Origin: an uncultured Acidobacteriota bacterium
GTDB lineage: Bacteria > Acidobacteriota > Vicinamibacteria > Vicinamibacterales > UBA2999
NCBI GenBank assembly: GCA_963846425.1
Contig: CAWJVW010000002.1
Span: 265,667-329,666 of the forward strand
Direction: 5' to 3'
Length of the DNA stretch: 64,000 bases
Shown here piece after piece: positions 2,470 through 62,587 of the stretch. Both the position numbers and the translations under genes were made by a program. Numbering within the stretch: the first letter of the stretch is position 1; the number at the start of each line of letters is the position of its first letter. The notes under the pieces were generated by a model. It was not told the DNA's origin, searched no databases, and saw only the letters and a list, made by a program, of their open reading frames with translations.

Positions 2470-2499
2470 CCCACCCGCCCCACCCGCCCCACCTGTCCC
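2470..2499 (-). other. G-quadruplex-forming motif (C-rich on plus strand), built partly from a CCCCACCCG nonamer repeated 3 times
   Basis: The plus strand reads CCCACCCGCCCCACCCGCCCCACCTGTCCC. The minus strand therefore has six G3-4 tracts separated by 1-4 nt. Confidence 0.5.
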
Positions 2500-2512
2500 A
2501 AACCAGCAGGAC

Positions 2513-2518
2513 TATAAT
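2513..2518 (+). promoter_or_regulatory. consensus -10 hexamer TATAAT 8 nt upstream of the nfeD ATG (possible leaderless or very short-leader transcript)
   Basis: Perfect TATAAT at 2513-2518 and ATG at 2527. No Shine-Dalgarno lies between them. No good -35. Confidence 0.3.
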
Positions 2519-2526
2519 TCGCGCGC

Positions 2527-2952
2527 ATGGAATGGTGGATGTGGCTCGCAGGAGGACTCGTCCTGCTGGTCATCGAATTGGCGACCCCCAGCGGCTTTTT
2601 CGTAATGTTCTTCGGGCTGGGGGCACTGACCGTTGGCGTCCTTGCACGGTTGGGTCTCGCAGAGGCGGCCTGGGCTCAGTGGTTGATTTTCACGGTCACC
2701 TCCGTCGCCTACTTGCTGTTCTTCCGAGGCCGCTTGCAGAAGAGCATGGACCACCCGCCGGCCAACGTGGATACGTTGATCGGCGAAACCGCCACGCCAC
2801 GCGAGCGGATCGAACCAGGGGCAATCGGACGCGCCGACCTGCGGGGTGCGCTGTGGAACGCCCGCAACGAGTCCGCAACGGTGATTGACGCCGGACAACG
2901 CTGTCGCGTGACGCGTGTCGACGGTCTTCTCGTTTACGTTCAGCCAGAGTGA
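2527..2952 (+). CDS. NfeD-family membrane protein
   Basis: N-terminal TM helices plus a C-terminal soluble domain. It ends 6 nt before an SPFH/stomatin gene, which is the canonical NfeD-SPFH pair. Confidence 0.8.
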   Translation: MEWWMWLAGGLVLLVIELATPSGFFVMFFGLGALTVGVLARLGLAEAAWAQWLIFTVTSVAYLLFFRGRLQKSMDHPPANVDTLIGETATPRERIEPGAIGRADLRGALWNARNESATVIDAGQRCRVTRVDGLLVYVQPE

Positions 2953-2958
2953 GGGTGC

Positions 2959-7122: not shown

Positions 7123-7170
7123 GATTCGATTGTAGCCGGAGCGTACTGAGACCGTCATGCGGCCGCGTTA

Positions 7171-7557
7171 TCACGGCACGTATGCAATACAGTCAATCTC
7201 GATTTTGAGGCCTTCTCCCGGCAGCCCAGCCGCCTGAATCGTCGTCCGCGCCGGACGGTGTTCGCCAAACATGCGCGAGTACACAGCGTTCATTTCCTGA
7301 AACTCACGCAAGTCGAGGAGGAACACGCCGCACCGCAGCACGTGCTGCAGACTCGATCCCGCGGCTTCGAGAATTGCCTCGACGTTCCGCAGGCATTGCT
7401 CGGTCTGCGCCGCGACGCTTGCTCCAGCCAGCTGACCGGTGGCGGGATCGGTTGCCCCCTGCCCGGAAACGAAGACGAGCCGATCGAATGCGACGCCCGG
7501 GGAGTATGGTCCGACGGGCTTGGGAAGGTTGGCAGCGTGAACAGGTCGATGAGTCAT
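7171..7557 (-). CDS. ridA: RidA/YjgF-family enamine/imine deaminase
   Basis: 128 aa with typical RidA length and sequence (PVGPYSPGV, VFVSGQ, IEIDCIA). Confidence 0.85.
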   Translation of the reverse strand: MTHRPVHAANLPKPVGPYSPGVAFDRLVFVSGQGATDPATGQLAGASVAAQTEQCLRNVEAILEAAGSSLQHVLRCGVFLLDLREFQEMNAVYSRMFGEHRPARTTIQAAGLPGEGLKIEIDCIAYVP

Positions 7558-7569
7558 GGTGAGATTGTA

Positions 7570-7706
7570 GAACTAAGAACGAAAAACGAAGAACGCGAAC
7601 CGGGAACGAGGAACAGGGAACGGAACTGCCGCAAACGCGTTGGTTGGTTCGGCGATGTCCGTTCCGTTCATTCGTTCTTCGTTCTTAGTTCTTCGTTCTT
7701 AGTTCG
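7570..7706. repeat. inverted pair of heptamer arrays: (GAACGAN)x8 at 7570-7626 and its reverse complement (NTCGTTC)x7 at 7657-7706
   Basis: I counted period 7 directly: gaactaa gaacgaa aaacgaa gaacgcg aaccggg aacgagg aacaggg aacggaa. The right arm reads ttcattcgttcttcgttcttagttcttcgttcttagttcg. It fills the 151-nt ridA/truA divergent spacer. Confidence 0.9.
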
Positions 7707-7708
7707 TT

Positions 7709-8527
7709 ATGATGCCCCCCGTGGCGCGGTTCAAGATCACGCTCGAGTATGCCGGTGGCCGTTACAGCGGCTGGCAGAAGCAGACCAATGCGCGGACGGT
7801 TCAGGGTGAAGTCGAGCGCGCGATTGCCGCAACCGTCGGCCATGGCGATTTCGAGTGTCAGGGCTCGGGCCGAACCGACGCAGGGGTCCATGCACTGATG
7901 CAGGTGGCCCACCTCGAGGTGCACTTGACCATGCCGCTGGAAAAGCTGCGTCGGCAGATCAACGACGAGCTGCCCTCGGACATCCATGTCCTCGCCATCA
8001 CGAAAGCGGTACACCGATTTCACGCCCGGCACGCCGCCGTCGGGCGGAGCTATCTCTATCAGGTTTCACGACGCCGGACGGCGTTCGCAAAGCCCTTCGT
8101 CTGGTGGGTCAAAGAGCCGCTCGACCTCGCGCTGATGACGGAGGCCGCCGCCCGGTTCTCCGGCATGCACGACTTCCGATCGTTCAGCGACGACGATCCG
8201 GACGACAAATCGACGGCAGTCCTTGTCGAGCAGGTGGCTCTCGCCGAAGAGGGCGATCTGATTCTGATTCGCGTCACCGGGTCGCACTTTCTGTGGAAGA
8301 TGGTCCGACGCATGGTCGGCGTGATCGTCGAGATCGGACGCGGGGGTCTGCCCGTTTCCGCGGTCGAGGATTTTCTCCGCAAGCCATCCGCGACTCCTGC
8401 GCGGCTGACGGCTCCCGCCTCGGGGCTGTTTCTCGAGCGAGTGTTTTACGAAGGCGACGACCGCGACTGGCCCCTGGTCTCCGCAATGCCGGTAGGCGTC
8501 GCGCCAGTGAAACGGCCAAGCAAGTAA
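7709..8527 (+). CDS. truA: tRNA pseudouridine(38-40) synthase TruA
   Basis: Catalytic motif GSGRTDAGVHA with typical TruA length and order. Confidence 0.9.
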   Translation: MMPPVARFKITLEYAGGRYSGWQKQTNARTVQGEVERAIAATVGHGDFECQGSGRTDAGVHALMQVAHLEVHLTMPLEKLRRQINDELPSDIHVLAITKAVHRFHARHAAVGRSYLYQVSRRRTAFAKPFVWWVKEPLDLALMTEAAARFSGMHDFRSFSDDDPDDKSTAVLVEQVALAEEGDLILIRVTGSHFLWKMVRRMVGVIVEIGRGGLPVSAVEDFLRKPSATPARLTAPASGLFLERVFYEGDDRDWPLVSAMPVGVAPVKRPSK

Positions 8528-8545: not shown

Positions 8546-8584
8546 GGTTTCTTACGACGGTTCCTAACGAGGGTTCCACGATTC
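8546..8584. repeat. three degenerate ~13-nt tandem units with a GGTTCC core (ggtttcttacgac ggttcctaacgag ggttccacgattc)
   Basis: Read directly. The core resembles the GGTTCCACG units inside the 26243-26388 array. Confidence 0.5.
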
Positions 8585-8643: not shown

Positions 8644-9213
8644 TTGCTGGCGCGCCTGCGCGCGGGCGACGAGGCCGCGTTCGAGACGCTGGTTCGCACC
8701 TATACGTCGCGTCTGCTCATCGTCGCGCGCCGCATCGTGGGCAACGAAGAGGATGCCCGCGACGTCATCCAGGACGCGTTTCTCTCGGCCTTCCGCAGCA
8801 TCGGCCGCTTTGCCGGCGACGCCCGGCTGTCGACCTGGCTGCATCGCATCGTCGTGAACACCGCGCTCATGAAGCTGCGCACACGGCGGCGAAAGCCAGA
8901 GGAATCGATTGAGCCGCTCCTGCCGGCCTTCCTGGCAGATGGCCATCATGCGGAACGGTTCACTGCGTGGACCGAGCGGGCCGATCAGGCGCTGGCGCGC
9001 AAGGAGACGCGAACTGCCGTCCGCCAGCACATCCAGGAGCTGCCGGAAGCCTTTCGTACCGTTTTGGTTCTCCGTGACATCGAAGGATTGAGCACCGAGG
9101 AAACTGCCCGCTTGCTTGAAACGACACCGAATGCGGTAAAGATTCGCCTACATCGCGCACGGCAGGCGCTGAGGACCCTTTTGGCGCCTCATTTTGCCAA
9201 GGGTGAACTGTGA
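8644..9213 (+). CDS. ECF-type RNA polymerase sigma factor
   Basis: Sigma-70 regions 2 and 4 (DARDVIQDAFLSAF; LSTEETARLLETTPNAVKIRLHRARQAL). TTG start. 4-nt overlap with the downstream anti-sigma gene. Confidence 0.88.
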   Translation: MLARLRAGDEAAFETLVRTYTSRLLIVARRIVGNEEDARDVIQDAFLSAFRSIGRFAGDARLSTWLHRIVVNTALMKLRTRRRKPEESIEPLLPAFLADGHHAERFTAWTERADQALARKETRTAVRQHIQELPEAFRTVLVLRDIEGLSTEETARLLETTPNAVKIRLHRARQALRTLLAPHFAKGEL

Positions 9214-19873: not shown

Positions 19874-20854
19874 ATGGACTTCAAGGATTATTACGCCACG
19901 CTTGGCGTCGCGAAGACGGCCTCCGACAAGGAAATCAAGCAGGCGTATCGCAAACTTGCGCGCAAGTATCACCCGGATGTGAATCCGGGAGACAAATCCG
20001 CTGAGGCTCGCTTCAAGGACATCAACGAAGCCAACGAGGTGCTCGGAGATCCCGAGAAGCGCAAGAAATACGACGAGCTCGGCGCGAACTGGCGCATGTA
20101 CGAACAAGCGCAAGCGCAAGGCGGCCGCCCAGGCAGTCCCTTCGGCGGTCAATGGACGTACGCGCCTGGCGGGGGCGGGTTCCGGCCGATGACCGAGGAC
20201 GACATGTCCGAGATGTTTGGCGGGGGCGACAGTCCGTTCTCGGATTTCTTCCGCACGTTTTTTGGCGGTGATGCAGAACCTTCGCGCGGGCGTCGGACAC
20301 GCACGCGCCCCCCACGCAATCGCAAGGGCCGTGACATCGAACACGAAATCGAGCTGGACCTCGCGAACGCTCTTCACGGATCGGTGCAGCGGCTGGGCAT
20401 CCAACATGACGGCGATGTGCGCAATGTCGAAGTGCGTATTCCAGCCGGTGTGATCGACGGTTCTCGCGTCCGGGTCGCTGGCGAAGGCGAACGCGGCACC
20501 GGTGCGCCAAGCGGCGACCTGTACCTGCGGATCAAGCTCCGACCTCATCCCCGCTTCGAGCGCAAAGGCCGGGATCTGTACACCAAAGTTCGCGTGCCAG
20601 TGACGACTGCCGTTCTTGGCGGTGAGGTCGAGGTACAAACCCTCTCCGGCAAATCACTGCGTCTCAAGGTTCCGCCGTTGACACAAAACGGCCAGGTCTT
20701 CCGACTACGCGGTCATGGGCTGCCGACGACCGGGAAGGACGGCACGGCCGGAGATTTGTATGCCACTGTAGACATTGCACTCCCACAGTCGTTGTCGGAT
20801 GAAGAGCGGATGCACTTCGAGGCGCTCGCGACGCTACAAAAGAGCGGGGAGTAA
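19874..20854 (+). CDS. cbpA: J-domain co-chaperone, CbpA/DnaJ class II type (no Zn-finger region)
   Basis: J domain with KYHPD (DYYATLGV...[11 protein letters not shown]), a G/F-rich linker and C-terminal DnaJ_C repeats. The Cys-rich domain is absent. ATG 19874 chosen. Confidence 0.85.
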
Positions 20855-20904
20855 GGCAAAAGGCCAAAGGCACAAGGCACAAGGCACAAGGCAAAAGGCG
20901 AAAG
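20853..20904. repeat. heptamer array (AAGGCAN)x7.5 filling the cbpA-clpB spacer
   Basis: aaggcaa aaggcca aaggcac aaggcac aaggcac aaggcaa aaggcga aag. It starts inside the cbpA stop codon and ends 3 nt before the clpB ATG. Confidence 0.92.
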
Positions 20905-26242: not shown

Positions 26243-26388
26243 GGTTCAGAGGTTCAGAGGTTCAGAGGTGCAGAGGTTCAGAGGTGCAGAGGTTCAGAGG
26301 TGCAGAGGTTCAGAGGTGCAGAGGTTCAGAGGTGCAGAGGTTCAGGGGTTCAGGGGTTCAGGGGTTCCACGGGTTCCACGGGTTCAGA
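26243..26388. repeat. octamer array, 18 units (GGTTCAGA, GGTGCAGA, GGTTCAGG, GGTTCCACG) with an alternating 16-nt super-repeat
   Basis: I counted unit by unit against the translated track ORF. The order is 3x ggttcaga, 4.5x (ggtgcaga ggttcaga), 3x ggttcagg, 2x ggttccacg, 1x ggttcaga. It lies in the PAP2/small-ORF divergent spacer. Confidence 0.95.
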
Positions 26389-27922: not shown

Positions 27923-27958
27923 CGGTCGCCGGTCGGCCGGTCGCCGGTCGCCGGTAAC
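27923..27958. repeat. heptamer array (CGGTCGC)x5, reverse complement of the ACCGGNG family
   Basis: cggtcgc cggtcggc cggtcgc cggtcgc cggtaac, in the divergent spacer upstream of the PSCyt gene. Confidence 0.85.
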
Positions 27959-30900: not shown

Positions 30901-31071
30901 GACGGTCCTACACCGAAACCTGATCCCGCCATGATGGACGGCATGATGGCCGGTGTGCTCGGTCCAGGCGACAAGAAGGCTGGCGAGACCAAAAAGCTAT
31001 TGCCGGTGACCGCCTTCGGCCGATACGTCAAGGTGCTCTTGAGCTCGAACGAGTTCTTGTTCGTGAACTGA
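27976..31071 (+). CDS. PSCyt1/DUF1549(PSCyt2)/DUF1553(PSD1) domain protein, exported
   Basis: Signal peptide, heme-binding CFMCH in the N-terminal PSCyt1-like domain, 1031 aa, followed by a DUF1501 gene (the canonical pair). Confidence 0.85.
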   Translation: MRAAIHARTLLAGAAALLMTTTMWAARETQAPASSPQPIEPPSAKAIEFFEANVRPVFVESCFMCHTKSEAGGLRVDSREALLKGGNSGPAVVPGNPDESYLLQAIRHAPNAPKMPKNGAKLSDAQIGALTQWIRDGAPWPAAAGAAAPAMATSREKVITDEQRAFWSFQPLRKVEAPAVSRADWATSSIDRFILARLEKDGLTPARAADKLTLIRRATLDLTGLPPTPDEIEAFEKDTSPDAFEKVVDRLLASPQYGEAWGRMWLDVARYAEDDPRSLDPMGRGYAPYPNAYLYRDWIVKAFNDDLPYEQFVKAQIAGDLLDEQTRARTLPALGLLGLGPWYYDNGAIEITKADERHDRVDVVSRGFLGLTVACARCHDHKYDPIPTKDYYSLAGVFLNTTYHEYPLAPKSEVDEFKGLEKKIEQKQKLLNEFLEVESRQLGETLALHTAKYLQAAWRVTGEPKDPMGRVADQEKLDYELFDRWVAFLAKPPRFYPYLKDWQEMIKRGGTADEAKKLADAFQTLLLEVMFAKKEIDEENEIIRAKALPGTKKKKPANLPSEFITNDDFCPGCGLELKSLETDQMQLWTDVFRRDLADGFDPAFAFDYIKPGVLNFRGWGLERQLSGDRRAHVEALRNDIKKLQSDLPAKYAYVHGVRDADKPAVMQVNVRGNPTRLGEEVPRRFLSVLSAAAPSPFEKGSGRLELAETIARHPLAARVIVNRVWKGHFGTGIVDTPSNFGFNGERPTHPELLEYLASSFVANGMSIKKLHREIMLSQVYQLSAESIATNAAKDSGNRLYWRASRRRMTAEQLRDSILSVSGALEAKMGGPAETLTPFYNRRTLYGKVSRYRIDPFLQLFDFPAPTISAEQRFATNVPLQRLFLMNSDFMQQQSELIARRVESEPDTRARIRKLYSVIFGRAPNDAELSAGLQYVTQEPLRSYEERKAEAAKKQLEDEKKAPGMKPQASGSPQTSDGPTPKPDPAMMDGMMAGVLGPGDKKAGETKKLLPVTAFGRYVKVLLSSNEFLFVN

Positions 31072-31112
31072 CCGGCAACCGGAGACCGGGGACTGGAGAC
31101 TGGCGACCGATA
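31071..31112. repeat. heptamer array (ACCGGNG)x6 filling the PSCyt-DUF1501 spacer
   Basis: accggca accggag accgggg actggag actggcg accgata. It runs from the last base of the stop codon to the first base of the next ATG. Confidence 0.88.
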
Positions 31113-39309: not shown

Positions 39310-39678
39310 TCAAAATCTCGATGGGCTCATCCCAATTCCCACGATGCTGCATGCCTGAACAGGCCGCAGCCCGAGCGCCTCAGCCCGTTCGATGAGTGCC
39401 GGGGATGCCGCTCCCGGATTGAACCACACCTCGATGATGCCCTTGGCCGCCAGCCCCTCGAGCAGTTGTTCACCAATTTCGGGGGGGACATAGACAGTTG
39501 CCAAGTCGATCACTCCCGGGAAATCCAGCACAGTTGGGTACGCCCGCTGTCCTTCAACCTCGTCGTGCGTCGGCGTGATCGGAATCGTCTGATAGCCCGC
39601 TTCGGTGAACGCGCGCAGCGCCTTGTTCCCAAACTTTCGCCGATCGGTGGAGGCGCCAATGACTGCAACGGTCTTCAT
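39310..39678 (-). CDS. CoA-binding domain protein (YccU/YneT-like)
   Basis: MKTVAVIGASTDRRKFGNKA Rossmann start. 122 aa from ATG 39678. Confidence 0.8.
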   Translation of the reverse strand: MKTVAVIGASTDRRKFGNKALRAFTEAGYQTIPITPTHDEVEGQRAYPTVLDFPGVIDLATVYVPPEIGEQLLEGLAAKGIIEVWFNPGAASPALIERAEALGLRPVQACSIVGIGMSPSRF

Positions 39679-39707
39679 TGAGCTGAGTATATGGCGTGAT
39701 CGACCAG

Positions 39708-39779
39708 CCCACGGCCCACGGTCCACGATTCATCACGCAGATCCTGGCGTTGTATCCGTAGGCCGTAGACCGTGGACCG
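39708..39779. repeat. inverted pair of heptamer arrays: (CCCACGG)x3 at 39708-39728 and (CCGTRGR)x3 at 39756-39779
   Basis: cccacgg cccacgg tccacga ... ccgtagg ccgtaga ccgtgga ccg. The right arm overlaps the GTG 39772 track start of the GT39 gene. Confidence 0.8.
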
Positions 39780-41505
39780 AATCCCGTGCCGGCCAGCGAA
39801 GTTCTGCGGCACGGTACAATCGTCGTCTGTGCGTCGTTCGACCATCCCTGTAGTACTGCTCGCCGCGCTCTCCTTCCTGACCGGGCTCGGCCGTGGTGCT
39901 ATCGCCGACACCGACGAAGCGTTCTATGCGGAGTCGGCCCGTGAAATGGTCGAGTCTGGTGACTGGCTCACGCCTCAGTTCAATTACGAACCGAGGTTCC
40001 AAAAGCCGGCGCTCTACTACTGGCTGACCGCTGCGGTCTACGTCGTGACCGGACCGAGTGAGTTTGGTGCGCGTCTGTGGTCGGGTCTGGCCGGTGTGGG
40101 GCTTGTGATCATCACGGCGGCGGTTGGCCGACGATGGCTTGACGAATCAGCGGGTCTGGTCGCAGGCGCGATTACTGCCACAGGTTTTGGCTACTTCGCG
40201 CTTGCGCGCATGTCGCTGCCCGACCTGCCACTGGCGTTCTGCATCACGCTCGCGATTTGGGCCGCGTTTGTCGCGGCACTCGAACGTGAGCGCCATCCCC
40301 GGCGATGGCTGCTGCTGGCGGCGGCGGCCGCGGCGCTGGGCTTTCTGATGAAAGGCCCGCTCGCAATCGTCATCCCCGCACTGGTCGTCCTGCCGATCCT
40401 GTTGATCGAGCGGCGCTCCTTCAACATCAAACCTGTCGACGTTCTGGTGGCCGCGATTGTGTTTCTCTCGGTGGCGTCACCCTGGTACATCGCCATGTGG
40501 CTGCGGCACGGAAGCGATTATCTCCAGGGCTTCTTCGTCGGCGACAACTTCGAGCGGTTCGCGACGTCACGCTTCAACGATCCGCGCCCCTGGTGGTTCT
40601 ACCTGCCGGTGCTGGCTGGCGGACTGCTGCCATGGACGCCGGTTGCGCTCGTCTGGGTCAGACCCGTGTCGGATTTCCTAAAGCGGCGACGTGATGTGGG
40701 AACTGTCGAACTCAGGTTGCTGCTCTGGACGGTGCTTCCGCTCGTCTTCTTCACGTTGTCGGTTGGCAAACAGCCGCGCTACGTGCTGCCGGTGCTCCCG
40801 CCGATGGCGTTGCTGCTCGCGAGCGCCATCATTGCCCGGACCAGTGAGTGGCATAGCCGGGGCGGCATGCGCGTCAGGCCGCGCCCCAATCTCACCGTGG
40901 TAGCGGGCTGTGTGCTTGCAGGACTGTTCCTAATCGCACTGGCCGTAATGCTGTACCGCGCGAAGCCGCTCTTCTTGAACGTTCCTGAATTAGCCACCCT
41001 CATCGTCGTCATTCTCACTGCAGGGGCGGGCACTGCCGTAGTCGCGGTCAGCTTGACGAGTGCGTGGCGTGCGGCGCCCGCCGTGCTCGCGCTCGGAGCG
41101 GCGGTGACCTTTGCCGCGCTGCCGTACGGCACCTTACCAGCCGCACACGTTTCTGCCGTCTCCGAGATGGCGCGTCTGGTCCGCGATGCGCGAACCGGCG
41201 GCGAGGCGATTGGCACTTACAAAGTCTTTGTTCGCAATCTGGTGTTCTACACCCGCACCAAGCACACCGATCTGATTCACGACGAGCACATCCTGGATTG
41301 GCTGGGCAAGAATCCACGCGCGCTGATCGTGTTGCCGACCTCCGAGGCCGAACGCCTTGAACGCGACCACGGCCTCAAACTGGATCGCGTGGCAGAGCGG
41401 CTGTACTTTGACGACGGCGGAATTCGCCCGCGGATGCTGCTCTGGCCAGATCCGCAGCGCGATCTGCAACGGGTCGCATTGGTAAGAGCCTTACGGGTTC
41501 AGTAG
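39772..41505 (+). CDS. GT39/ArnT-like glycosyltransferase (dolichyl-phosphate-mannose-protein mannosyltransferase family)
   Basis: Polytopic protein with the DTDEAFYAESAREMVESGDWLTPQFNYEPRFQKPALYYWL loop motif. The true start may be GTG 39829, because 39772 lies inside a repeat array. Confidence 0.8.
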   Translation: MDRIPCRPAKFCGTVQSSSVRRSTIPVVLLAALSFLTGLGRGAIADTDEAFYAESAREMVESGDWLTPQFNYEPRFQKPALYYWLTAAVYVVTGPSEFGARLWSGLAGVGLVIITAAVGRRWLDESAGLVAGAITATGFGYFALARMSLPDLPLAFCITLAIWAAFVAALERERHPRRWLLLAAAAAALGFLMKGPLAIVIPALVVLPILLIERRSFNIKPVDVLVAAIVFLSVASPWYIAMWLRHGSDYLQGFFVGDNFERFATSRFNDPRPWWFYLPVLAGGLLPWTPVALVWVRPVSDFLKRRRDVGTVELRLLLWTVLPLVFFTLSVGKQPRYVLPVLPPMALLLASAIIARTSEWHSRGGMRVRPRPNLTVVAGCVLAGLFLIALAVMLYRAKPLFLNVPELATLIVVILTAGAGTAVVAVSLTSAWRAAPAVLALGAAVTFAALPYGTLPAAHVSAVSEMARLVRDARTGGEAIGTYKVFVRNLVFYTRTKHTDLIHDEHILDWLGKNPRALIVLPTSEAERLERDHGLKLDRVAERLYFDDGGIRPRMLLWPDPQRDLQRVALVRALRVQ

Positions 41506-41633
41506 TTCAGAGGTTCAGAGGTTCAGGGGTTCGGTTCGAATGCCAAAGTTCGAGGATCTCTGTCGAGCCTCCTGAACCTTCTGAACCTCCTGAACCTCTG
41601 AACCTCTGAACCCCTGAACCTCTGAACCTCAGG
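41495..41633. repeat. inverted pair of GGTTCAGR octamer arrays (4.5 units at 41495-41535, 7 reverse-complement units at 41568-41628), candidate bidirectional terminator
   Basis: gggttcag tagttcag aggttcag aggttcag gggttcgg ... cctgaacc ttctgaacc tcctgaacc tctgaacc tctgaacc cctgaacc tctgaacc. It spans exactly stop codon to stop codon of two convergent genes. Confidence 0.92.
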
Positions 41634-45383: not shown

Positions 45384-45423
45384 TCGGAGACGGAGTCCGA
45401 CCGGAGACCGGAGACCGGAGACC
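45384..45423. repeat. heptamer array of the ACCGGAG family (3 perfect CCGGAGA units at 45401-45421 plus degenerate units)
   Basis: tcggaga cggagt ccga ccggaga ccggaga ccggaga cc, abutting the recG stop codon (45424-45426). Confidence 0.85.
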
Positions 45424-47526
45424 TCATCCAACGGTAATCAGGCCAAATTGCCGCTGCCACACATTCTGGACGTAACGCTGCTCGGCATCGGTGAGCGTGC
45501 GCGCATCCACGCGTTTGCGCGCCTCGTTGAAAGCCAACTCGAGCAGCTCCACATCGCGGGTCAGGTCGCCCGCACGCAGCTGCGGTAGTCCATGCTGGCG
45601 GGTGCCAAAAAAATCCCCGGGACCTCGAAGTTGCAGGTCGCGTTCCGCAATCACAAATCCGTCGTTGGTGTCAGCCATGGCCTTGAGCCGCTCGCGCGCC
45701 TCTTCGGACCAGGGCGCCTGATACAGCAGCACACAGACCGATTCGCTGCTGCCTCGCCCGACCCGCCCGCGCAGCTGATGAAGCTGCGACAGGCCAAATC
45801 GCTCGGCATGTTCGACAACCATGATCGTGGCGTTTGGTACGTCAACACCGACCTCAACCACGGTCGTGGCGACCAGGATGTCCAGCCTGCCTGCCGAAAA
45901 CTCGCGCATCACCGAGGTCTTGTCGTCGGCCTTCATGCGACCGTGTACGAGTGCCACTGTCAGCTCCGGAAAGACGTCGCGCGCGAGGTGTTCAGCCATC
46001 GCAGTTGCGGCCTTGAGGTCGACTTTTTCGGACTCTTCGACGAGCGGATAGACCACATACGCCTGCCGACCCGACCGAATCTCCTGTCGCACCAGATCGT
46101 AAACATCCTCTCGACGCGAGTCGGGCTTGACGAGCGTGCGTACGGGCCTTCGCCCCGGAGGCAGCCCGCGAATGACTGAGATTTCCATGTCACCGCATTC
46201 CGTTAACGCCAGCGTCCGCGGAATCGGGGTCGCTGTCATGACCAGGACGTCAGGGTTGAGGCCCTTCCCCGCAAGAGTCGCGCGTTGCAGAACCCCGAAA
46301 CGATGCTGCTCGTCGACAACCGCCAGGGCGAGCGCGCGGAATTTGACGTGCTCCTGCACGAGTGCGTGGGTGCCGACGACGAGATGAACGTCGCCGCGTT
46401 CAATAGCCGGCAACAGCGTCCGCCGTTCTGCTGGCGTGATTCTGCCGGTCAGCAGCGCGACACGGTAACGTGTGGCGGCCAGCCAGGTTGAAAGCGTTGC
46501 CAGATGTTGTTCGGCGAGAATTTCCGTCGGCGCCATGAACGCCACCTGAAATCCGTTCTCCATGGCGACAATCGCCGCCAGCAAGGCAACGATGGTCTTA
46601 CCGGCACCGACGTCGCCTTGCAGGAGTCGCTGCATCGGCCACGGCTTCTGCATGTCGGCGACGATTTCGGCGAGCGCCTGTCGTTGTCCTTCCGTCAGCT
46701 TGAACGGAAGCACTGCCCGCGCCGCCTGCCGCACCCGGTCGTCAACCGAGCACACCAGCGCCTTGCGCACCTCGGCGTTCTGCTGACGACGGAGGGCCAG
46801 CCCCGTTTGAAAAACGAAGAAGTCCTCGAAAATCAACCGCCGCTGGGCGAGAGTGCGGAAAGCATTGAGTGCCTCCACCGAGGTGCTGGCATCAGGAAAA
46901 TGCGCTTGCACGAGCGCCTCGCGACGTGCCGGCCATCGCTCTCGCTCCCGCACATCAGCGGGGACGGGATCGAAGAGGACCTCCGGAAGTTGTTCGAGCG
47001 CTTGCCACACGAAGCGCCGCTGCATGTTCGTCGTGACACTGCCCGTCCGCTCGTAGACGGGTACGATGCGTCCCGTGTGCAGGGTCGAAGGCTCATCGTT
47101 TTCGGTGTCTCGGATGATCTCGAATTCCGGGTCCGTCAGCTGCAAGCCTCGTGATCCCCAGTGTTCAGCCTTGCCGTACAACACGACGTGCTGGTGTGGG
47201 CGAATCACATCTTTCAAAAAGGCCTGATTGGGCCACACCGCTTGGATCTGGCCGCTTGGGTCCTGCAGCAGCGCTGTGAAGAGGCGAAACCCCGCGCGCC
47301 GGGTCGTCTGCAGGCTTGCATGCAGCACTTCCCCACTGACGGCGACGGTTTGGCCCGGCCGGATCGAAACGATCGGCTGCAGCCGGCTGCGGTCTTCATA
47401 GCGAAGTGGAAATCGAAAGAGCAGATCTTCGACCGTTACAAGGCCCGCCTTCTTCAAATCCATGGCCTTGCGCGGGCCGACGCCCTTTAAAAACTGCAGC
47501 GGGAGTTGCAGGACGTCATCGTCCAC
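45424..47526 (-). CDS. recG: ATP-dependent DNA helicase RecG
   Basis: Wedge/OB N-domain, helicase motifs GDVGAGKT and VDEQHRFG, 700 aa, GTG start. Confidence 0.95.
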   Translation of the reverse strand: MDDDVLQLPLQFLKGVGPRKAMDLKKAGLVTVEDLLFRFPLRYEDRSRLQPIVSIRPGQTVAVSGEVLHASLQTTRRAGFRLFTALLQDPSGQIQAVWPNQAFLKDVIRPHQHVVLYGKAEHWGSRGLQLTDPEFEIIRDTENDEPSTLHTGRIVPVYERTGSVTTNMQRRFVWQALEQLPEVLFDPVPADVRERERWPARREALVQAHFPDASTSVEALNAFRTLAQRRLIFEDFFVFQTGLALRRQQNAEVRKALVCSVDDRVRQAARAVLPFKLTEGQRQALAEIVADMQKPWPMQRLLQGDVGAGKTIVALLAAIVAMENGFQVAFMAPTEILAEQHLATLSTWLAATRYRVALLTGRITPAERRTLLPAIERGDVHLVVGTHALVQEHVKFRALALAVVDEQHRFGVLQRATLAGKGLNPDVLVMTATPIPRTLALTECGDMEISVIRGLPPGRRPVRTLVKPDSRREDVYDLVRQEIRSGRQAYVVYPLVEESEKVDLKAATAMAEHLARDVFPELTVALVHGRMKADDKTSVMREFSAGRLDILVATTVVEVGVDVPNATIMVVEHAERFGLSQLHQLRGRVGRGSSESVCVLLYQAPWSEEARERLKAMADTNDGFVIAERDLQLRGPGDFFGTRQHGLPQLRAGDLTRDVELLELAFNEARKRVDARTLTDAEQRYVQNVWQRQFGLITVG

Positions 47527-47551
47527 ACAGCGATGTTACTGCACCAAAATA

Positions 47552-47604
47552 GGTTCAGAGGTTCAGCAGTTCAGAGGTTCAGTAGTTCAGGGGTTCCGTC
47601 AGGG
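47552..47604. repeat. octamer array (GGTTCAGN)x6
   Basis: ggttcaga ggttcagc agttcaga ggttcagt agttcagg ggttccgt caggg, 25 nt upstream of the recG start on the opposite strand. Confidence 0.9.
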
Positions 47605-51559: not shown

Positions 51560-51623
51560 GACATCTTCTAAGGCCCGGCGAAAACTTGCTTTAATTGTCA
51601 CTACTATGACCTTAGAAGATGTC
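51560..51623 (+). promoter_or_regulatory. 14-bp perfect inverted repeat GACATCTTCTAAGG (51560-51573) / CCTTAGAAGATGTC (51610-51623) enclosing the nth start codon
   Basis: The right arm contains ATG 51619-51621. The 36-nt spacer is AT-richer than its surroundings. Confidence 0.6.
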
Positions 51624-52380
51624 TAAGGGAATCGTGAAGTCGCGTCAGGTCGCGCGCCGCGTTTTCGCCGCGCTCGAGCGGCATTATCCAGACGCCGACA
51701 CCGAGCTGAATTACCGCACGCCGTTCGAGTTGCTGGTAGCCACGATCTTGTCGGCCCAGTCCACGGATCAGCGCGTGAATCTCGTGACACCTGATTTGTT
51801 CGCGCGTTACCCCGATGCCGATCGAATGGCGTGTGCCAATCCCGAAGATCTGGAGCCGATCATCATGTCCACCGGCTTCTTTCGTCAGAAGTCGCGCTCC
51901 CTCGTGGGGATGGCAGCGGCTCTCGTCGAGCATCACGCGGGACAGGTGCCCGCGGACATGGACGCGCTCGTCAAGCTGCCTGGAGTTGGACGAAAAACAG
52001 CCAACGTCGTCCTGGGTCATGCGCTCGGTGTTCCCGGCTTTCCGGTCGATCGGCACGTCTTGCGCGTGACCAATCGTCTCGGGCTGGTCCACAGTGAAGA
52101 CCCCGAGAAAGTCGAATCGGCGCTATGCGCGTACTTGTCGCCAGAGCGTTGGACGAAAGCCTCCGACACGCTGATCCTTCACGGACGCCGCATTTGTCGT
52201 CCGACCCCGCTTTGCGAGCGATGTAACGCGCGGAAGGATTGTGACTTCTATCTGCGCGGAGGAATGGTGGTCCGGGCAGGAACTGGAAAGGCACAAGGTA
52301 CAAGGCAGAAGGCAGGCACAAGGCAGAAGGCACAAACCACGAGGCAGAAGGCACCAGGCAAGAGGCCCAGCAAGCGATGA
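51619..52380 (+). CDS. nth: endonuclease III (Nth) with a repeat-encoded basic C-terminal tail
   Basis: HhH motif LPGVGRKTANVVL and [4Fe-4S] motif CRPTPLCERCNARKDC. The last ~35 codons ([33 protein letters not shown]) are the translated AAGGCAN array. Confidence 0.9.
   Translation: MSKGIVKSRQVARRVFAALERHYPDADTELNYRTPFELLVATILSAQSTDQRVNLVTPDLFARYPDADRMACANPEDLEPIIMSTGFFRQKSRSLVGMAAALVEHHAGQVPADMDALVKLPGVGRKTANVVLGHALGVPGFPVDRHVLRVTNRLGLVHSEDPEKVESALCAYLSPERWTKASDTLILHGRRICRPTPLCERCNARKDCDFYLRGGMVVRAGTGKAQGTRQKAGTRQKAQTTRQKAPGKRPSKR
52288..52368. repeat. heptamer array (AAGGCAN)x11, lying inside the 3' end of the nth ORF
   Basis: aaggcac aaggtac aaggcag aaggcag gcac aaggcag aaggcac aaaccac gaggcag aaggcac caggcaa gaggccc. 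Confidence 0.9.
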
Positions 52381-52788
52381 CGCGAGAGCGGTTCAGGGAG
52401 TTGGTCCAGCAAGCCATCGACACCATTCCGCGACGCTTTGCCCGCGAGATTCGCAATGTCGCAATCGTGATCGAAGATCGGCCGTCGCCTGAACTCCTCG
52501 CCGACATGGAGATGGGACCCGACGAAATCCTGCTCGGGCTTTATCAAGGTGTGCCTCTGACAGAGAGGCCTTGGGGGCACGGCAACGCAGCTGCCCGACC
52601 GCATCACTTTGTTTCAGCGCGAGATTGAAGAGGATTGCGAGGACGACGACGAGGAAATTGTCGCGGCCGTCGGGGAAACGTTGATCCACGAGCTGGGCCA
52701 CTACTTTGGCTTGAGCGAAGAAGAGATCATGGACATCGAAGAGCGATACTGGCGCGGCGACGCATTCGAAGGCGAGCCGTCCTCGTGA
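52377..52788 (+). pseudogene. zincin-like (DUF1025-type) metallopeptidase, reading frame broken by +1 shift between 52561 and 52626
   Basis: The N-part (MTRERFRELVQQAIDTIPRRFAREIRNVAIVIEDRPS...GLYQGVPLTER) is in frame 0. The C-part (QLPDRITLFQREIE...TLIHELGHYFGLSEEEIMDIEERYW) is in frame +1 ending at TGA 52786-52788. A G5 run at 52573-52577 is the likely indel site. Confidence 0.8.
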
Positions 52789-57805: not shown

Positions 57806-57815
57806 CGGAGCACGA

Positions 57816-59573: not shown

Positions 59574-59582
59574 CGGCGTCAG

Positions 59583-59822
59583 CTACTTGGCTCTGAAGAG
59601 ATTGTGTTCGCCGCCACGGGCTTCGATCGTCGTGGCGGGACGCCGGCGGCGGTACCAGATGAAGATCGCGCCGGCGGCAAAGCCGGCGATGATGGCCGCG
59701 GCCATGATGACGCCCGTCAGGCCGAACGCGGCGACGGCCACCTGAATCATATCGATACTGGACGCCGGTTCCTTGACCACCTCGATGATGGTGATCGGCT
59801 GCGCGGGGGTGGCATTCTGCAT
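59583..59822 (-). CDS. small single-pass membrane protein, hypothetical
   Basis: 79 aa with one TM helix followed by YRRRR. Its ATG overlaps the pepA stop (TAATG). Confidence 0.5.
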   Translation of the reverse strand: MQNATPAQPITIIEVVKEPASSIDMIQVAVAAFGLTGVIMAAAIIAGFAAGAIFIWYRRRRPATTIEARGGEHNLFRAK

Positions 59823-61315
59823 TACGGCCAGTTCTTACCCGCAGTCCTCGCAACTTCGACAAGCGTTCGAATCATCACCCCCGTGGCGCCCTTGGGTGTC
59901 CACGGCCGTGCCTCGTCGGCCCACGCGGTCCCGGCAATGTCCAGATGCGCCCACGGCGTCGTCCCCACGAACTCCTTGAGGAACATCGCTGCCGTAATCG
60001 CGCCCGCAGGGCGGCCAGGACTGTTCAGCATGTCCGCGATCTCGCTTTTCAACGATTCCTTGTAATCGTCGAACAGGGGCATGGGCCAGACGCGCTCACC
60101 AGCGCGATCCGCGGCCGCGCGAACGATCTCGACCCATGCATCGCTCCCAAACAGACCTGTTGCGACCTTGCCGAGGGCCACCACACAGGCTCCGGTGAGT
60201 GTGGCGACGTCAACCATATGCGTCGCACCAAGATGTTGTGCGTACCAGAGAGCGTCGCCGAGAATCAGCCGTCCCTCGGCGTCGGTGTTATTGACTTCAA
60301 CGGTTAGTCCGGAGGCGCCGCGAAGGACATCCCCCGGCTTGATCGCACGACCGCCCGGCATGTTCTCGGTCGACGGCACGATCGCCATGGCGCGAATCGG
60401 AAGACGTTCGAGGGCGATGGCGCGCAATGCGGCCATCACCGTGGCACCGCCGGCCATGTCGTCCTTCATTCGCTCCATGCCATCGGCCGGCTTGAGCGAA
60501 ATGCCTCCGGTGTCGAACGTGATGCCTTTCCCGATGAGGCCGAGCACAGGAGCGACGGGGGCGCCCACAGGCTCGTAGCGGGCGACGAGCAGCCTCGGCG
60601 GCTCGTCGCTCCCACGCGCGACGCCCAGGAGCAGCCCCATTCCGAGCTCCTCCATCCGGTGTTCGTCGAGGACTTCTGTCGTGACACCTGGTACTGCGAG
60701 CAGAGACTGGCCGCGATCGGCAAACTCGCGTGGCGTGAGCCGATTGCCCGGCTCGTTGATGAGGACGCGGGCGGCATTGATTGCTTCGCCCACTCGCCCA
60801 CCTCGGTGGACCGTCGTGCCCGCGTCCGCAGCAGGAGTCGAGACTTCCACGGCGCTCACGAAGAACCGGGGATCGTCGCGGGTCTTGTAATGCCCGTTGT
60901 CGTAATTCGCGAGCGTGACGCCCTCGACCAGCGCTTCAATCCACGGGCCGGACCACGACTTGTCCAACGCAAACGCGATCCGCGCGTGGCGATGCTGGCG
61001 CGCCGCGAGGCCGACGCAGGCGCCCGCGCGCCGGATCCGCTCGATTGTGACTTCGGCGCGAGGTCCCATGCCCACGGCGAGAAACCGGCGACGTCCGTTC
61101 CCGCCAACGACGGAGGCGATCCAGATCTCGCATACCTTGCCGTTGAACTCCCCGCGTTGAAAGGCAGAATTGAGCTCCCCGCCCGTCGCATCGTTGAGCC
61201 AGCCGAACTCGCCGTTATGGTCCTGTGGAACTGCGATCGCAACCAGATCGGCATCGATCTGTGTCGCCGCGACGCGGCTCGTGGTGAATTGAGGAATCTC
61301 GTACGCCGGATGCAT
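59822..61315 (-). CDS. pepA: leucyl aminopeptidase (M17)
   Basis: NTDAEGRLILGDAL signature and metal ligands. ATG 61315 preferred. The track ORF extends to TTG 61372. Confidence 0.92.
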   Translation of the reverse strand: MHPAYEIPQFTTSRVAATQIDADLVAIAVPQDHNGEFGWLNDATGGELNSAFQRGEFNGKVCEIWIASVVGGNGRRRFLAVGMGPRAEVTIERIRRAGACVGLAARQHRHARIAFALDKSWSGPWIEALVEGVTLANYDNGHYKTRDDPRFFVSAVEVSTPAADAGTTVHRGGRVGEAINAARVLINEPGNRLTPREFADRGQSLLAVPGVTTEVLDEHRMEELGMGLLLGVARGSDEPPRLLVARYEPVGAPVAPVLGLIGKGITFDTGGISLKPADGMERMKDDMAGGATVMAALRAIALERLPIRAMAIVPSTENMPGGRAIKPGDVLRGASGLTVEVNNTDAEGRLILGDALWYAQHLGATHMVDVATLTGACVVALGKVATGLFGSDAWVEIVRAAADRAGERVWPMPLFDDYKESLKSEIADMLNSPGRPAGAITAAMFLKEFVGTTPWAHLDIAGTAWADEARPWTPKGATGVMIRTLVEVARTAGKNWP

Positions 61316-61411
61316 CTCTCCCCGCTGGAGCAAAGGTAGCAACGGCCGCTCGCGCGAGCGCGCGACGGCCAAACGATTAAGTGTAGCAGGGGAAAGACGG
61401 TGTCCTGAAGC

Positions 61412-62467
61412 CTAACCGGCCACTTGGACAATTCCCGTCTGAGGGACGGGGGGGACCGGCGGGGGCGACGTGGACCAACGCCCGAAGCCTGTCATCAACG
61501 TCGCGCCCAGACCGATCGTCCACACGATGAATTCGATCAGGGCGCCCGTAAGCAGCACCGCCCACGCGCCAAATCGCAATGGATCCGGCGCGAGACCAAT
61601 CAAGCGTGACGCAAAGGTCGGCCCAATGACGAGCATCAGACCAATGGCGGTGGCAAGAAATGCGCTGTGGCCGCGCCATCCAAGGCGGTCCTCAACCCAT
61701 TCGCCGAGACGGCACGCGATGCCCGTGAATCCCAGGATCAGCGCCGCAAAGATGGTCAGAAACGCCACCGGCACGAGAAGCGCGACCAGCGGAATGCCGA
61801 TGATGGTCACGATGAGACCAATGCTGGCGATGATGAGGGCCGGAAGAAAGAGGATTTCGGTGGCCAGTCCCAGAAGAAAGGCGCGCCCTGGTTCGGCAGC
61901 CGCGGCCCTCCCCACACGCGCGACCGGAGCGCGGGCGACGATGAGGACCAATGCCATCAGAATGGCCAGCAGCGAAATACGGAACAACGCGCCGAACAGG
62001 CTGATCCATCGGCTGAAGTCACCGAAGTCCACCACTGGGAGGTAGAAGCCACCCCAGGACCACGACCCCCAATCTCCGAAACTGACATCGCTGACGCTCC
62101 CGCGCAATTGCGCTCCGTCAGCGCGCGAAAGGCGGCCGCCGACCAGGACCACGTCGCCGCGCACGTCGGATTCAGGGCCAAGCTCCACGTTGCCGCCCAC
62201 CACGACCACGCCATCACGCACGCGTCCATCAACGCGCAGCGAACCGCCAATGACAACAACGGCGTCAGTTACCTCTTCGTCGCGCGAGATCTGAATGCTG
62301 CGCCCAATCGCCACCCGCGACCCGGTGGTGCGATAGACCCGAGGCTGCTCCGGGGGCTGGCTCGTAGGGCTCGTCGTGCTTTGCGCCTGAGCGTTGGGGA
62401 TTGCGGCAGCGACTAGAAGCGCAAGCGCACTGACGTATAGGCCCGACCTGCTCGATACAGTGCGCAC
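61412..62467 (-). CDS. membrane protein with exported bactofilin-like beta-helix repeat domain and C-terminal polytopic region
   Basis: GTG 62467 has GGGAGG 4 nt upstream and is followed by a signal peptide (LYVSALALLVAAAIPNAQAQ). It has repeats of the GDVVLVGG / GVVVVGGNV type, then about 6 TM helices. Confidence 0.65.
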   Translation of the reverse strand: MRTVSSRSGLYVSALALLVAAAIPNAQAQSTTSPTSQPPEQPRVYRTTGSRVAIGRSIQISRDEEVTDAVVVIGGSLRVDGRVRDGVVVVGGNVELGPESDVRGDVVLVGGRLSRADGAQLRGSVSDVSFGDWGSWSWGGFYLPVVDFGDFSRWISLFGALFRISLLAILMALVLIVARAPVARVGRAAAAEPGRAFLLGLATEILFLPALIIASIGLIVTIIGIPLVALLVPVAFLTIFAALILGFTGIACRLGEWVEDRLGWRGHSAFLATAIGLMLVIGPTFASRLIGLAPDPLRFGAWAVLLTGALIEFIVWTIGLGATLMTGFGRWSTSPPPVPPVPQTGIVQVAG

Positions 62468-62483
62468 AATCCCTCCCAAACCT

Positions 62484-62587
62484 GAAGGCAAAGGCAGAAG
62501 ACGAAAGGCAAAATTCAACGCTCGCGACAGGGCCGACGCTTTAGGTTTTGCCTTCTGCCTTCTGCCTTCTGCCTTGTACCCTATGCC
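62484..62587. repeat. inverted pair of AAGGCAN heptamer arrays (62484-62513 and reverse complement 62546-62587)
   Basis: gaaggca aaggcag aagacga aaggcaa aa ... ttttgcc ttctgcc ttctgcc ttctgcc ttgtacc ctatgcc, between the JAMM stop and the next gene's RBS. Confidence 0.9.

Follow-up and report, generated by a model that had tools for sequence, protein, structure and literature searches.

The subject of this work is a 64,000-nucleotide (nt) stretch of a contig from an uncultured soil Acidobacteriota bacterium of the order Vicinamibacterales (referred to below, at its full length, as the window), 13 of whose spacers contain arrays of head-to-tail repeats with units of 7 to 9 nt. These arrays are real, non-random and lineage-specific, and on balance they are probably long simple sequence repeats (SSRs) that were generated by slippage, have grown in place and are confined by selection to spacers and to the ends of open reading frames (ORFs).

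Occurrence of the arrays in the window and in related DNA

The arrays were located with Tandem Repeats Finder (TRF) over the window and their units were then checked by eye. Arrays of this kind had been described in the original prediction, which was made from the letters of the window, and TRF recovered them at essentially all of the places named there. With a period of 7-9 and at least 3 copies, 14 arrays are found in the window, whereas 100 dinucleotide-preserving shuffles of it have 0.62 on average and never more than 3, which places the arrays far above chance. That the units belong to a few families and that inverted pairs are frequent is likewise borne out by TRF and by the reading of the units; the families are GTTCAG-core octamers, AAGGCAN, GACCGGN, GAACGAN and CCCACGG (Table 1), three of which are each present at 3-5 loci. 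However, the repeat at 8546-8584, earlier taken for a degenerate relative of GGTTCAGR, has to be removed from this family: its period is 13 nt and, unlike the true arrays, which turn over, it is conserved among relatives, viz. in L117, L121 and, with an expansion to 3-4 copies, L118. It is probably a site of regulation rather than a variable array.

The window, with a G+C content of 60-65% along its length, is a piece of ordinary core chromosome. Its genes were called by a codon model trained on the window, and nearly all of them were then checked against Pfam, by which the array-flanking genes were identified as those for SurE, NfeD, RidA, TruA, DnaJ, ClpB, PAP2, PSCyt/DUF1553, DUF1501, PMT, FAD oxidase, RecG, Nth and a JAB protein, i.e. 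unrelated housekeeping genes; two ECF sigma factors, FtsH, Rho, LexA, KsgA, RNase J and FtsK are also encoded. Among the ~58 window proteins, the Pfam scan revealed no transposase, repetitive extragenic palindrome (REP)-associated tyrosine transposase (RAYT), reverse transcriptase, integrase or cas gene. Arrays of the same family have no flanking sequence in common. Outside the arrays, the window has 9 occurrences of GGTTCAG and 23 of AAGGCA, one of each being intergenic; this is the background level, with no enrichment in spacers. No Rfam covariance model matches any array even at E <= 1 when the whole window is scanned, the single Rfam match in it being a tRNA-Pro.

By homologues of TruA and PAP2, and by a stretch 76% identical in a metagenome-assembled Acidobacteriota genome, the window is assigned to Vicinamibacterales or to their vicinity; an exact search for its ClpB matched no record. 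For comparison, relatives syntenic with the window were used, viz. L117 (95% nt identity), L202 (92%), L203 (84-90%), L118-L120 (~78%), L121 (~80%) and L204 (~80%; 20.8 kb syntenic with window positions 19.4-40.5 kb, taken from a 5.35-Mb contig, ERZ25039476 contig_2910), together with 80 metagenome loci around homologues of the FAD-oxidase gene at 41629-43050. In a census of ~617 kb of Vicinamibacterales-like DNA, which is ~90% coding, arrays of at least 3 copies number 72 at period 7 (65 intergenic), 21 at period 8 (14 intergenic) and 9 at period 9 (4 intergenic), and repeats of period 3, 6 and 12 fall in coding sequence. Since 65 of the 72 period-7 arrays lie in the ~10% of this DNA that is non-coding, the arrays are a heptamer-dominated, intergenic trait of the group, and at periods 7 and 8 they are not equally frequent in coding DNA. 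The intergenic placement claimed in the original prediction is upheld by these counts, but not for every array of the window, as array 52288-52368 lies inside the nth ORF and the PMT stop codon lies inside array 41495-41535.

The occupancy of spacers by arrays is independent of gene arrangement, arrays being present in 43 of 326 co-directional (13.2%), 7 of 60 convergent (11.7%) and 7 of 53 divergent spacers (13.2%). At the 80 FAD-oxidase loci there are ~2 arrays of period 6-10 per 10 kb, and among the loci of at least 9 kb the density of intergenic arrays of period 7-9 ranges from 0 to 2.8 per 10 kb, an over-dispersion that is only suggestive (chi-square p = 0.087). Between lineages the units at these 80 loci are very diverse (AACTCCC, ATCCCGG, AATCCCT, AGAGCCC and many more). 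Downstream of the stop codon of the glcD-like gene, arrays are present at 12 of 72 loci, with units that include GTCGGGA, TCGCGGGT, GGTTCGC, GGCACCA, CTCGTGA and GTAGGTG, and other loci have plain GC hairpins there; as this share of 17% is close to the general spacer occupancy of 13%, positional conservation of arrays downstream of this gene is ruled out. At the same position L166 and L182 carry a different kind of repeat, viz. REP-like perfect palindromes (GGCGGACCTGAAGGTCCGCC) in 2-3 copies ~35 nt apart.

One of the families extends beyond the group. Three tandem GGTTCAGR units are found in more than 116 stretches of a species-representative genome collection and, among the matches listed, whose phyla were taken from record titles, 46 loci are from metagenome-assembled genomes (MAGs) of Desulfobacterota and 14 from Acidobacteriota, including a Vicinamibacterales MAG. 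Some of the genomes listed carry several loci; inverted pairs account for 27 of 71 listed arrays in Desulfobacterota and 16 of 29 in Acidobacteriota, and the arrays of both phyla share unit variants with the window, e.g. GGTTCAGTAGTTCAGAGG. However, in a viral collection, the only one to which this rough control was applied, three tandem GGTTCAGR units gave 5 matches and permuted octamers, two of which are rotations of each other, gave 0, 6 and 4. Since the permuted octamers are about as frequent in viral contigs, a few chance occurrences may be expected for whichever octamer array is chosen, and GGTTCAGR may not be an exceptional cross-phylum unit; the concentration of the GTTCAG core in Acidobacteriota and Desulfobacterota is suggestive. 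The five viral contigs in question (L205-L209, from IMG/VR) carry three or more GGTTCAGR units. Six GGTTCAGR loci (L073, L040, L042, L064, L095 and L105) come from a MAG labelled Bifidobacteriaceae (CAYJPQ01), in which L073 has 66% G+C and a thiolase 46% identical to that of the window; this label, or the binning, may be wrong.

Orthologous spacers and gene borders

The manner in which arrays come and go is seen most directly where the same spacer can be compared in several relatives. One example of this kind is the dnaJ/clpB spacer, which in the window is taken up by AAGGCAN over 52 nt, with AAAGGCGAAAG last before the ATG, whereas L118 has one AAAGGCGAAAC, with the stop and start codons overlapping, and L121 and L204 have short, non-repetitive spacers. 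Similarly, the 41 nt of GACCGGN between PSCyt and DUF1501 correspond in L204 to a 32-nt unique spacer with CCGG and GACCG; the -10-like boxes of the CoA-binding and PMT genes are 123 nt apart in the window, with an array pair between them, and 14 nt apart in L204, with no array; and at the site of array 27923 L204 has unique sequence. Over the whole of the 19.4-40.5 kb with which L204 is syntenic, where the window has arrays in five spacers (20853, 26243, 27923, 31071 and the pair 39708/39756), no period-7 or period-8 array is present in L204. In the surE/nfeD spacer, a related C-rich array (CCACCTG x2.9) is found in L118 and no array in L121.

At other sites the arrays differ in copy number. 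Upstream of the PAP2 gene, the window has 18 GGTTCAGR units, L202 (92% identical) has 6.6, L203 has a hairpin with one copy (GGTTCAGAGG-N12-CCGAACC) and L204 has none. The CGTTCTT units upstream of truA number ~6 in the window, 6.6 in L117, 5 in L118 and ~2 in L121. In L118 these units have been kept despite a DinB gene inserted upstream, with the opposite arm down to a GAAGAAC..GTTCTTC mini-hairpin; in L117 the left arm (the 7570 array) is longer by one unit; and in L088 (61% protein identity) a different heptamer, CCCTGAT x7.4, occupies the same place. L117 (95% identical) shows indels of +8, +15 and +16 nt, and array copy number differs between contigs that are 92-95% identical. Based on these comparisons, the arrays are gained, lost and resized by whole units over a few percent of sequence divergence. 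They are dispensable at the orthologous sites of relatives, and some of them persist long. The word system, by which the original prediction referred to them and which implies a coordinated function, is therefore an overstatement: orthologous spacers of relatives ~80% identical are without arrays, occupancy does not depend on context, and the units turn over.

Some further differences among the relatives were noted. L118 carries at 1459-1702, between tRNA-Pro and surE, a very large inverted pair (ACGGGTGCG x12, 9-nt, and CGCACCTGT x10, 8-nt) that is absent from the window and from L121. The segment 26256-26872 (~600 nt), located between the beta-propeller and PAP2 genes and including a small signal-peptide ORF with no Pfam match, is variable: it is present in L202, absent from L203 (10-nt junction) and represented in L204 by a 450-residue gene. 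Between ridA and truA, which in the window are divergent neighbours, L118 (7809-8420) and L121 (6605-9650) have from one to four additional genes, viz. those for DinB_2, a glyoxalase, a beta-lactamase-fold protein and an acetyltransferase.

With respect to promoters, a -10-like TANNNT box (TATAAT, TACAAT, TATGAT or TATACT, conserved in relatives) is present 6-8 nt before an in-frame start codon in 9 of the 39 genes with an upstream gap, which suggests, from the spacing of these motifs, that leaderless mRNAs are common in this lineage. Arrays lie directly upstream of such a box in six cases (nfeD, ridA, truA, the CoA-binding gene, PMT and recG). One array (27923) is instead located just downstream of a conserved CATAAT, 4 nt beyond it, and due to this it is probably part of the 5' leader of the PSCyt/DUF1553 gene. 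A consensus scan revealed no sigma-70 -35/-10 promoter at the arrays scanned, and a scan of 41300-41800 no T-tract terminator. In view of these negative scans and of the equal occupancy of convergent, divergent and co-directional spacers, a role of the arrays as promoters only, or as terminators only, is ruled out.

The boundaries of several genes have to be read with the arrays in mind. The 'ATG' of truA at 7709 is a part of the -10 box, with the actual start probably at GTG 7721, and the gene called at 61412-62314 probably starts at GTG 62467, which is preceded by a Shine-Dalgarno (SD) sequence, GGAGGG, and gives a signal peptide (..ALALLVAAAIPNAQA). With the latter start, the inverted AAGGCAN pair fills the spacer from the stop codon of the JAB gene to this SD sequence. 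AAGGCAN arrays are also found, in sense orientation, directly upstream of the starts of clpB and of a Zincin_1 metallopeptidase gene. The latter gene (52377-52788) is split into overlapping ORFs, 52377-52628 and 52609-52788, which correspond to the N- and C-terminal halves of the Pfam family, and represents a frameshift, a pseudogene or a sequencing error. At the other end of genes, the PMT ORF terminates at a TAG (41503-41505) within an array, and the nth ORF (51619-52380) reads through its AAGGCAN array, by which the protein is extended at its C-terminus, past the Fe-S cluster motif, by a K/R/Q-rich tail of 30 residues. As this array is 81 nt long with a 21-nt superperiod, the reading frame of nth and its ATGA overlap with the next gene are kept.

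The original prediction also held that the inverted pairs could form long hairpins. Based on folding against shuffles, this is the case for 3-4 of the pairs in the window: region 41490-41635, with a stem of ~45 bp, has a folding energy of -80.9 kcal/mol on the + strand (z -9.3) and -83.9 on the - strand (z -8.5), region 7565-7710 one of -65.6 kcal/mol (z -6.5) and region 62480-62590 (- strand) one of -50.5 kcal/mol (z -5.1). The fold of the CCCACGG pair, whose arms have ~3 copies each, is weak (z = -1.9), and the single array 27923..27958 folds on itself (z = -2.95).

Table 1. Arrays of the window with their units, copy numbers and surroundings, followed by a repeat that is not a member and by the -10-like boxes.
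Positions	Strand	Unit	Copies and TRF result	Surroundings
2470..2495	+	CCCACCCGC nonamer	TRF 2470-2493, period 9, 2.7 copies	Divergent surE(-)/nfeD(+) spacer; followed after 17 nt by -10-like TATAAT (2513-2518), which is followed after 8 nt by the nfeD ATG
7570..7626	+	GAACGAN heptamers, left arm of inverted pair	~8 degenerate copies, readable by eye	Adjoins -10-like TACAAT of predicted leaderless ridA (- strand)
7657..7706	-	CGTTCTT (+ strand), right arm	~6 copies, 14-nt superperiod; TRF 7665-7705, period 7, 5.7 copies	Adjoins -10-like TATGAT (7708-7713) of truA
20853..20904	+	AAGGCAN heptamers	TRF period 7, 7.4 copies	Whole spacer from dnaJ stop to clpB start; last unit SD-like AAGGCGA
26243..26388	+	GGTTCAGR octamers	~18 copies, including a run of alternating GGTTCAGA/GGTGCAGA 16-nt dimer; TRF 26243-26385, period 8	Between PAP2 gene start (- strand, 26220) and small signal-peptide ORF (26424-26831, +)
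27923..27958	-	CGGTCGC heptamers (reverse complement of GACCGGN)	~5 copies; TRF 27923-27955, period 7, 4.6 copies	
31071..31112	+	GACCGGN heptamers	TRF 31070-31109, period 7, 5.7 copies	Whole PSCyt/DUF1501 spacer; first unit overlaps PSCyt TGA; DUF1501 ATG at 31112
39708..39728	+	CCCACGG heptamers, left arm of weak inverted pair	TRF 39707-39727, period 7, 3.0 copies	Pair between two divergent, predicted leaderless promoters (CoA-binding gene, PMT gene)
39756..39779	-	CCGTRGR heptamers, right arm of CCCACGG pair	TRF period 7, 3.4 copies	
41495..41535	+	GGTTCAGR octamers, left arm of inverted pair	~5 copies; TRF 41496-41532, period 8, 4.6 copies	Pair between convergent PMT and FAD-oxidase genes
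41568..41630	-	CTGAACC(Y)(Y) 8-9-nt units, right arm	~7 copies; TRF 41572-41630, period 8, 7.1 copies	Adjoins FAD-oxidase stop codon (41629-41631)
45384..45423	+	GACCGGN heptamers	3.6 perfect copies + degenerate lead-in; TRF 45399-45423, period 7	Adjoins recG stop codon (- strand)
47552..47604	+	GGTTCAGN octamers	~6 copies; TRF 47551-47596, period 8, 5.8 copies	Starts 13 nt upstream of -10-like TAACAT of predicted leaderless recG (- strand)
52288..52368	+	AAGGCAN heptamers	~11 copies; TRF 52288-52360, period 7, 10.9 copies	
62484..62513	+	AAGGCAN heptamers, one arm of inverted pair	~4 copies; TRF 62485-62512, period 7	Pair between two co-directional (-) genes; 16 nt upstream of probable GTG start and SD of downstream gene
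62546..62587	-	TGCCTTC heptamers, other arm	~5 copies; TRF 62549-62575, period 7	14 nt past stop of JAB-domain gene (62602)
8546..8584	+	Not an array member: motif GGTTCCTAACGAC, ACGA(C/A)GGTTCC x2.5-3	TRF period 13	Upstream of ECF sigma gene (8644-9213)
2513-2529, 7557-7569, 7708-7723, 39678-39691, 39815-39831, 47526-47538 and others		-10-like box with start codon		

Replication slippage as the proposed mechanism, and competing explanations

If the arrays are long SSRs, then they would have begun from short seeds already present in the spacers, which expanded in place by replication slippage, and selection would tolerate them only in intergenic spacers and in the dispensable last codons of ORFs. 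The arrays are moderately unstable, units being gained or lost over ~5-8% sequence divergence. The inverted pairs most likely arose when both arms of a small pre-existing hairpin expanded, and what keeps the two arms matched may be selection for pairing or else intramolecular template switching at quasi-palindromes, the latter being established in Escherichia coli. Any function would probably be secondary and local: the hairpins at 3' ends (41495/41568 and 62484/62546) could serve as terminators or RNA-stabilising structures, the units beside -10 boxes (e.g. that of truA) would have become promoter-proximal DNA, and arrays within ORFs would add disordered tails to proteins, such as the basic tail on Nth. 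The length and superperiod of the nth array are as expected if only frame-preserving steps survive.

However, a number of observations weigh against slippage as the full explanation. First, the same unit recurs at several loci within 64 kb although the corresponding single-copy motifs are no commoner than background; on this ground the families cannot be accounted for by independent random seeding, and dispersed single-copy seeds, in the manner of a REP-like hairpin family, are ruled out as their source on the same counts. Second, GTTCAG is kept in 27 of ~36 units and AAGGCA in 18 of ~27, with a variable linker in both, which looks like constraint on the core. Third, matched inverted pairs make up at least 36% of the arrays and are found in all gene contexts, which slippage alone does not predict. 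Fourth, in co-directional spacers 22 of 43 arrays lie at most 10 nt from the upstream stop codon, as against 13.7 expected from random placement of the arrays inside their own spacers (P ~0.0007); in the same placement test, start codons show no excess of adjoining arrays. This excess may come in part from array growth into dispensable C-terminal codons, with the first stop codon inside the array becoming the end of the ORF, and growth into the end of an ORF is visible at dnaJ (where the TAA overlaps the first unit), PSCyt, PMT and nth. Fifth, the window, L117 and L118 do not differ at all over the 33 nt of the truA array beside the -10 box, although the flanks are only ~80% identical. Lastly, no change in array length is seen between contig pairs that are 99.2-99.9% identical, and the arrays are thus not hypermutable; hypermutable or phase-variable contingency loci, as a class, are excluded by this observation and by the location of the arrays outside a -35/-10 spacer or in other contexts. 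The recurrence of units, the pattern of core plus linker and the frequency of matched pairs are not explained by slippage, and therefore explanations based on a binding protein, on structure or on a dedicated mechanism stay alive.

Of these, a binding protein is possible, although we consider it rather unlikely. The arrays would then be multimeric sites for a lineage-specific, sequence-specific protein, which might bind DNA, as a nucleoid or transcription factor, or RNA, as a post-transcriptional regulator, and selection on the motif would keep the families. A post-transcriptional role of the RNA-binding kind has been proposed for the TAACTGA repeats of Beggiatoaceae (PMC4679880). The conserved cores, the presence of one family at several loci where seeds are not enriched, the 33 conserved nt beside the truA promoter and the proximity of arrays to the -10 boxes of the predicted leaderless genes all accord with such a protein, as do the sense AAGGCAN arrays before clpB and Zincin_1, which resemble repeated SD-like motifs, and the recurrence of GTTCAG-core arrays in other Acidobacteriota and in Desulfobacterota MAGs. 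However, orthologous spacers of relatives ~80% identical do without arrays, the genes there overlapping or nearly adjoining; occupancy is independent of gene context, the flanking genes are unrelated housekeeping genes, and units turn over between lineages at one and the same site. The orientation with respect to transcription is also inconsistent within a family, GACCGGN being in sense orientation at 31071 and antisense at 45384, with 27923 likewise to be set against 31071.

It is unlikely that the arrays act mainly by way of structure, with the pairs terminating transcription, protecting 3' ends or forming cruciforms, and the G-rich arrays forming G-quadruplexes (G4). In favour of this are the hairpins, which are far more stable than those of shuffles, the placement of the pairs 41495/41568 and 62484/62546 directly past stop codons, the excess of arrays near stop codons and the plain GC hairpins that relatives have downstream of the glcD-like gene. 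But about two thirds of the arrays are direct and not inverted, the pairs are no rarer in divergent spacers than in the rest (3 divergent, 3 convergent and 7 co-directional in our own tally), and close relatives lack the arrays. The pairs do not belong to the class of intrinsic terminators, as the scan for a T-tract, which took in the hairpin at 41490-41635, gave no match and pairs are also present between divergent genes. With respect to G4, for which at least four tracts of three or more G are needed in the heptamer class known for them, four GGGG tracts are present at the distal end of 26243-26388, and the Xanthomonas GGGAATC repeat forms G4 (PMC4692102); the other units have GG or no G runs, and since most units of the window have GG runs only, their G4 potential is weak and the arrays are not assigned to this class.

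A broader proposal, which we regard as distinctly improbable, is that the arrays are the footprint of a trans-acting system, be it a binding protein or a unit-adding enzyme, which is gained and lost between genomes ~80% identical. If this were true, it would explain why there are few units per genome, why their cores are conserved and why matched pairs are common, and also why GTTCAG-core octamers are found in both Acidobacteriota and many Desulfobacterota.

A dedicated means of spread or manufacture, viz. a non-autonomous mobile element or the templated addition of repeats at breaks or stalled forks, for example by a reverse transcriptase or a primase-polymerase, is very improbable. The few families per genome, their variable presence among relatives ~80% identical and the occurrence of the GTTCAG-core unit in distant phyla would fit with it, and the lack of target duplications or terminal repeats is as expected if units were added rather than inserted. 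However, same-family arrays share no flanks, there are seeds or remnants at the orthologous sites, the ~58 window proteins scanned include no transposase, RAYT, reverse transcriptase or integrase, and the recurrence of the unit across taxa may be background, in view of the counts for permuted octamers in viral contigs. Lastly, there is hardly any chance that the arrays are an artefact of assembly, for although short-read assemblers can mis-size tandem repeats and exact copy numbers (such as 18 against 6.6) could be partly wrong, same-family arrays are present at the same loci in the independent assemblies L117 (JGI), L202 (Logan) and L118-L120 (ENA), the arrays contain internal variant units, and the same class is found in 80 further metagenome loci.

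Relation to known repeat systems and significance

The arrays are neither CRISPR (clustered regularly interspaced short palindromic repeats) nor insertion sequences (IS) or miniature inverted-repeat transposable elements (MITE), in agreement with what was concluded from the letters. CRISPR have repeats of 23-50 nt with unique spacers, whereas the units here are contiguous, with no spacers, and no cas genes are present in the window. Against IS and MITE stand the lack of common flanks among same-family arrays, the absence of transposase and RAYT from the window, and growth in place at orthologous sites, which hold seeds or remnants and not empty sites. Two analogues had been put forward in the original prediction, viz. 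the short tandemly repeated repetitive (STRR) sequences of cyanobacteria and the REP/bacterial interspersed mosaic elements (BIME) of enterobacteria. The former, heptamer units CCCCAGT, TTGGTCA and CAACAGT of heterocystous cyanobacteria, are a fair analogue in that non-coding DNA carries tandem copies of a small number of heptamer families, but the units and the phylum are different, and the cyanobacterial units are absent from the window arrays. REP/BIME have units that are imperfect palindromes of 20-40 nt, mobilised by RAYT transposases. The likeness to them is limited to the intergenic placement, often just past stop codons, and the capacity for hairpins; they are a poor analogue because the 7-9-nt unit here is not a palindrome, hairpins being formed only by two opposed arrays, and because no RAYT is found among the ~58 window proteins scanned.

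Closer analogues than these two, overlooked earlier, are found in the literature, due to which this kind of repeat has to be regarded as already known. Long SSRs with units of 5-11 nt are a known class (Huang & Mrazek 2014, PMC4060949), and the work of Mrazek, Guo & Shah (2007), as cited in PMC4692102, is credited there with the observation that heptamers are over-represented in the intergenic DNA of many bacteria, for which slippage related to the polymerase footprint was proposed. The window arrays resemble this class in being contiguous and head-to-tail, strongly intergenic and dominated by heptamers, in having a unit length that is not a multiple of three, in the whole-unit length polymorphism between relatives, and in their host, a free-living bacterium with a large genome. 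In Xanthomonas, ~185 GGGAATC arrays are present per genome, some as inverted pairs, and mostly the same genes flank them in sister species while their length and sequence vary widely; these arrays, which form G4, could not be linked to gene function (Rehm et al. 2015, PMC4692102). Nostoc has heptamer arrays of GGGGA(C/T)T (PMC4692102) and also STRR arrays. Common to these and the window is a heptamer family scattered over many spacers, with some inverted pairs, but in place of G3-4 tracts and one dominant family there are several families here, mostly with GG runs and with prominent octamers. The TAACTGA direct repeats are common to Beggiatoaceae, Cyanobacteria and Bacteroidetes without an evident transfer mechanism (MacGregor 2015, PMC4679880). 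Like the arrays described here, they are intergenic and short in unit, are shared by distant phyla and lie within a few nt of start codons; unlike them, they have 2-6 copies, are almost always direct and stand upstream of starts, whereas here up to 18 copies are found, more than one third of the arrays are in inverted pairs and all gene contexts are used equally. Species-specific short-unit tandem families scattered through the genome, as seen here, are also known from Chloroflexus aurantiacus, (GATAGRA)n, and from Burkholderia (6-8-nt microsatellite families), in a survey that only counted arrays and in whose table of satellite-rich species Acidobacteriota are absent (Subirana & Messeguer 2019, PMC6749651).

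The class of repeat is thus a known one, intergenic heptamer and octamer arrays having been recognised ever since the STRR of cyanobacteria. What sets the arrays described here apart is their lineage and units, together with the coexistence of several families, the prominence of octamers and the high share of inverted pairs. In the searchable literature, to which subscription literature does not belong, no description of such arrays was found for Acidobacteriota, as had been supposed, nor any of Vicinamibacterales-like Acidobacteriota or of these units in work on long SSRs, and searches for the exact repeat strings and for tandem repeats of Vicinamibacter gave no match. We know of no demonstrated function for the STRR, GGGAATC, TAACTGA, GATAGRA or Burkholderia arrays and, to our knowledge, for no lineage has it been explained why amplification is limited to a few units per genome, or settled whether the arrays have any effect.

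For the biology of these bacteria, the arrays have several consequences. They push apart genes that overlap or nearly adjoin in relatives, they sit against predicted leaderless promoters, they can add basic tails to proteins such as Nth, and they mislead the calling of start codons, as in the case of the 'ATG' of truA inside a -10 box. As array-rich and array-free genomes are syntenic here and only ~20% diverged, this Vicinamibacterales group provides an unusually clean comparison, in which the birth of arrays can be read base by base, both from seed to array and from small hairpin to inverted pair. Given complete genomes, one could search by association for the genetic determinant behind the proliferation of arrays, and the questions of why heptamers are amplified, and why so few units, are more tractable here than in most systems.

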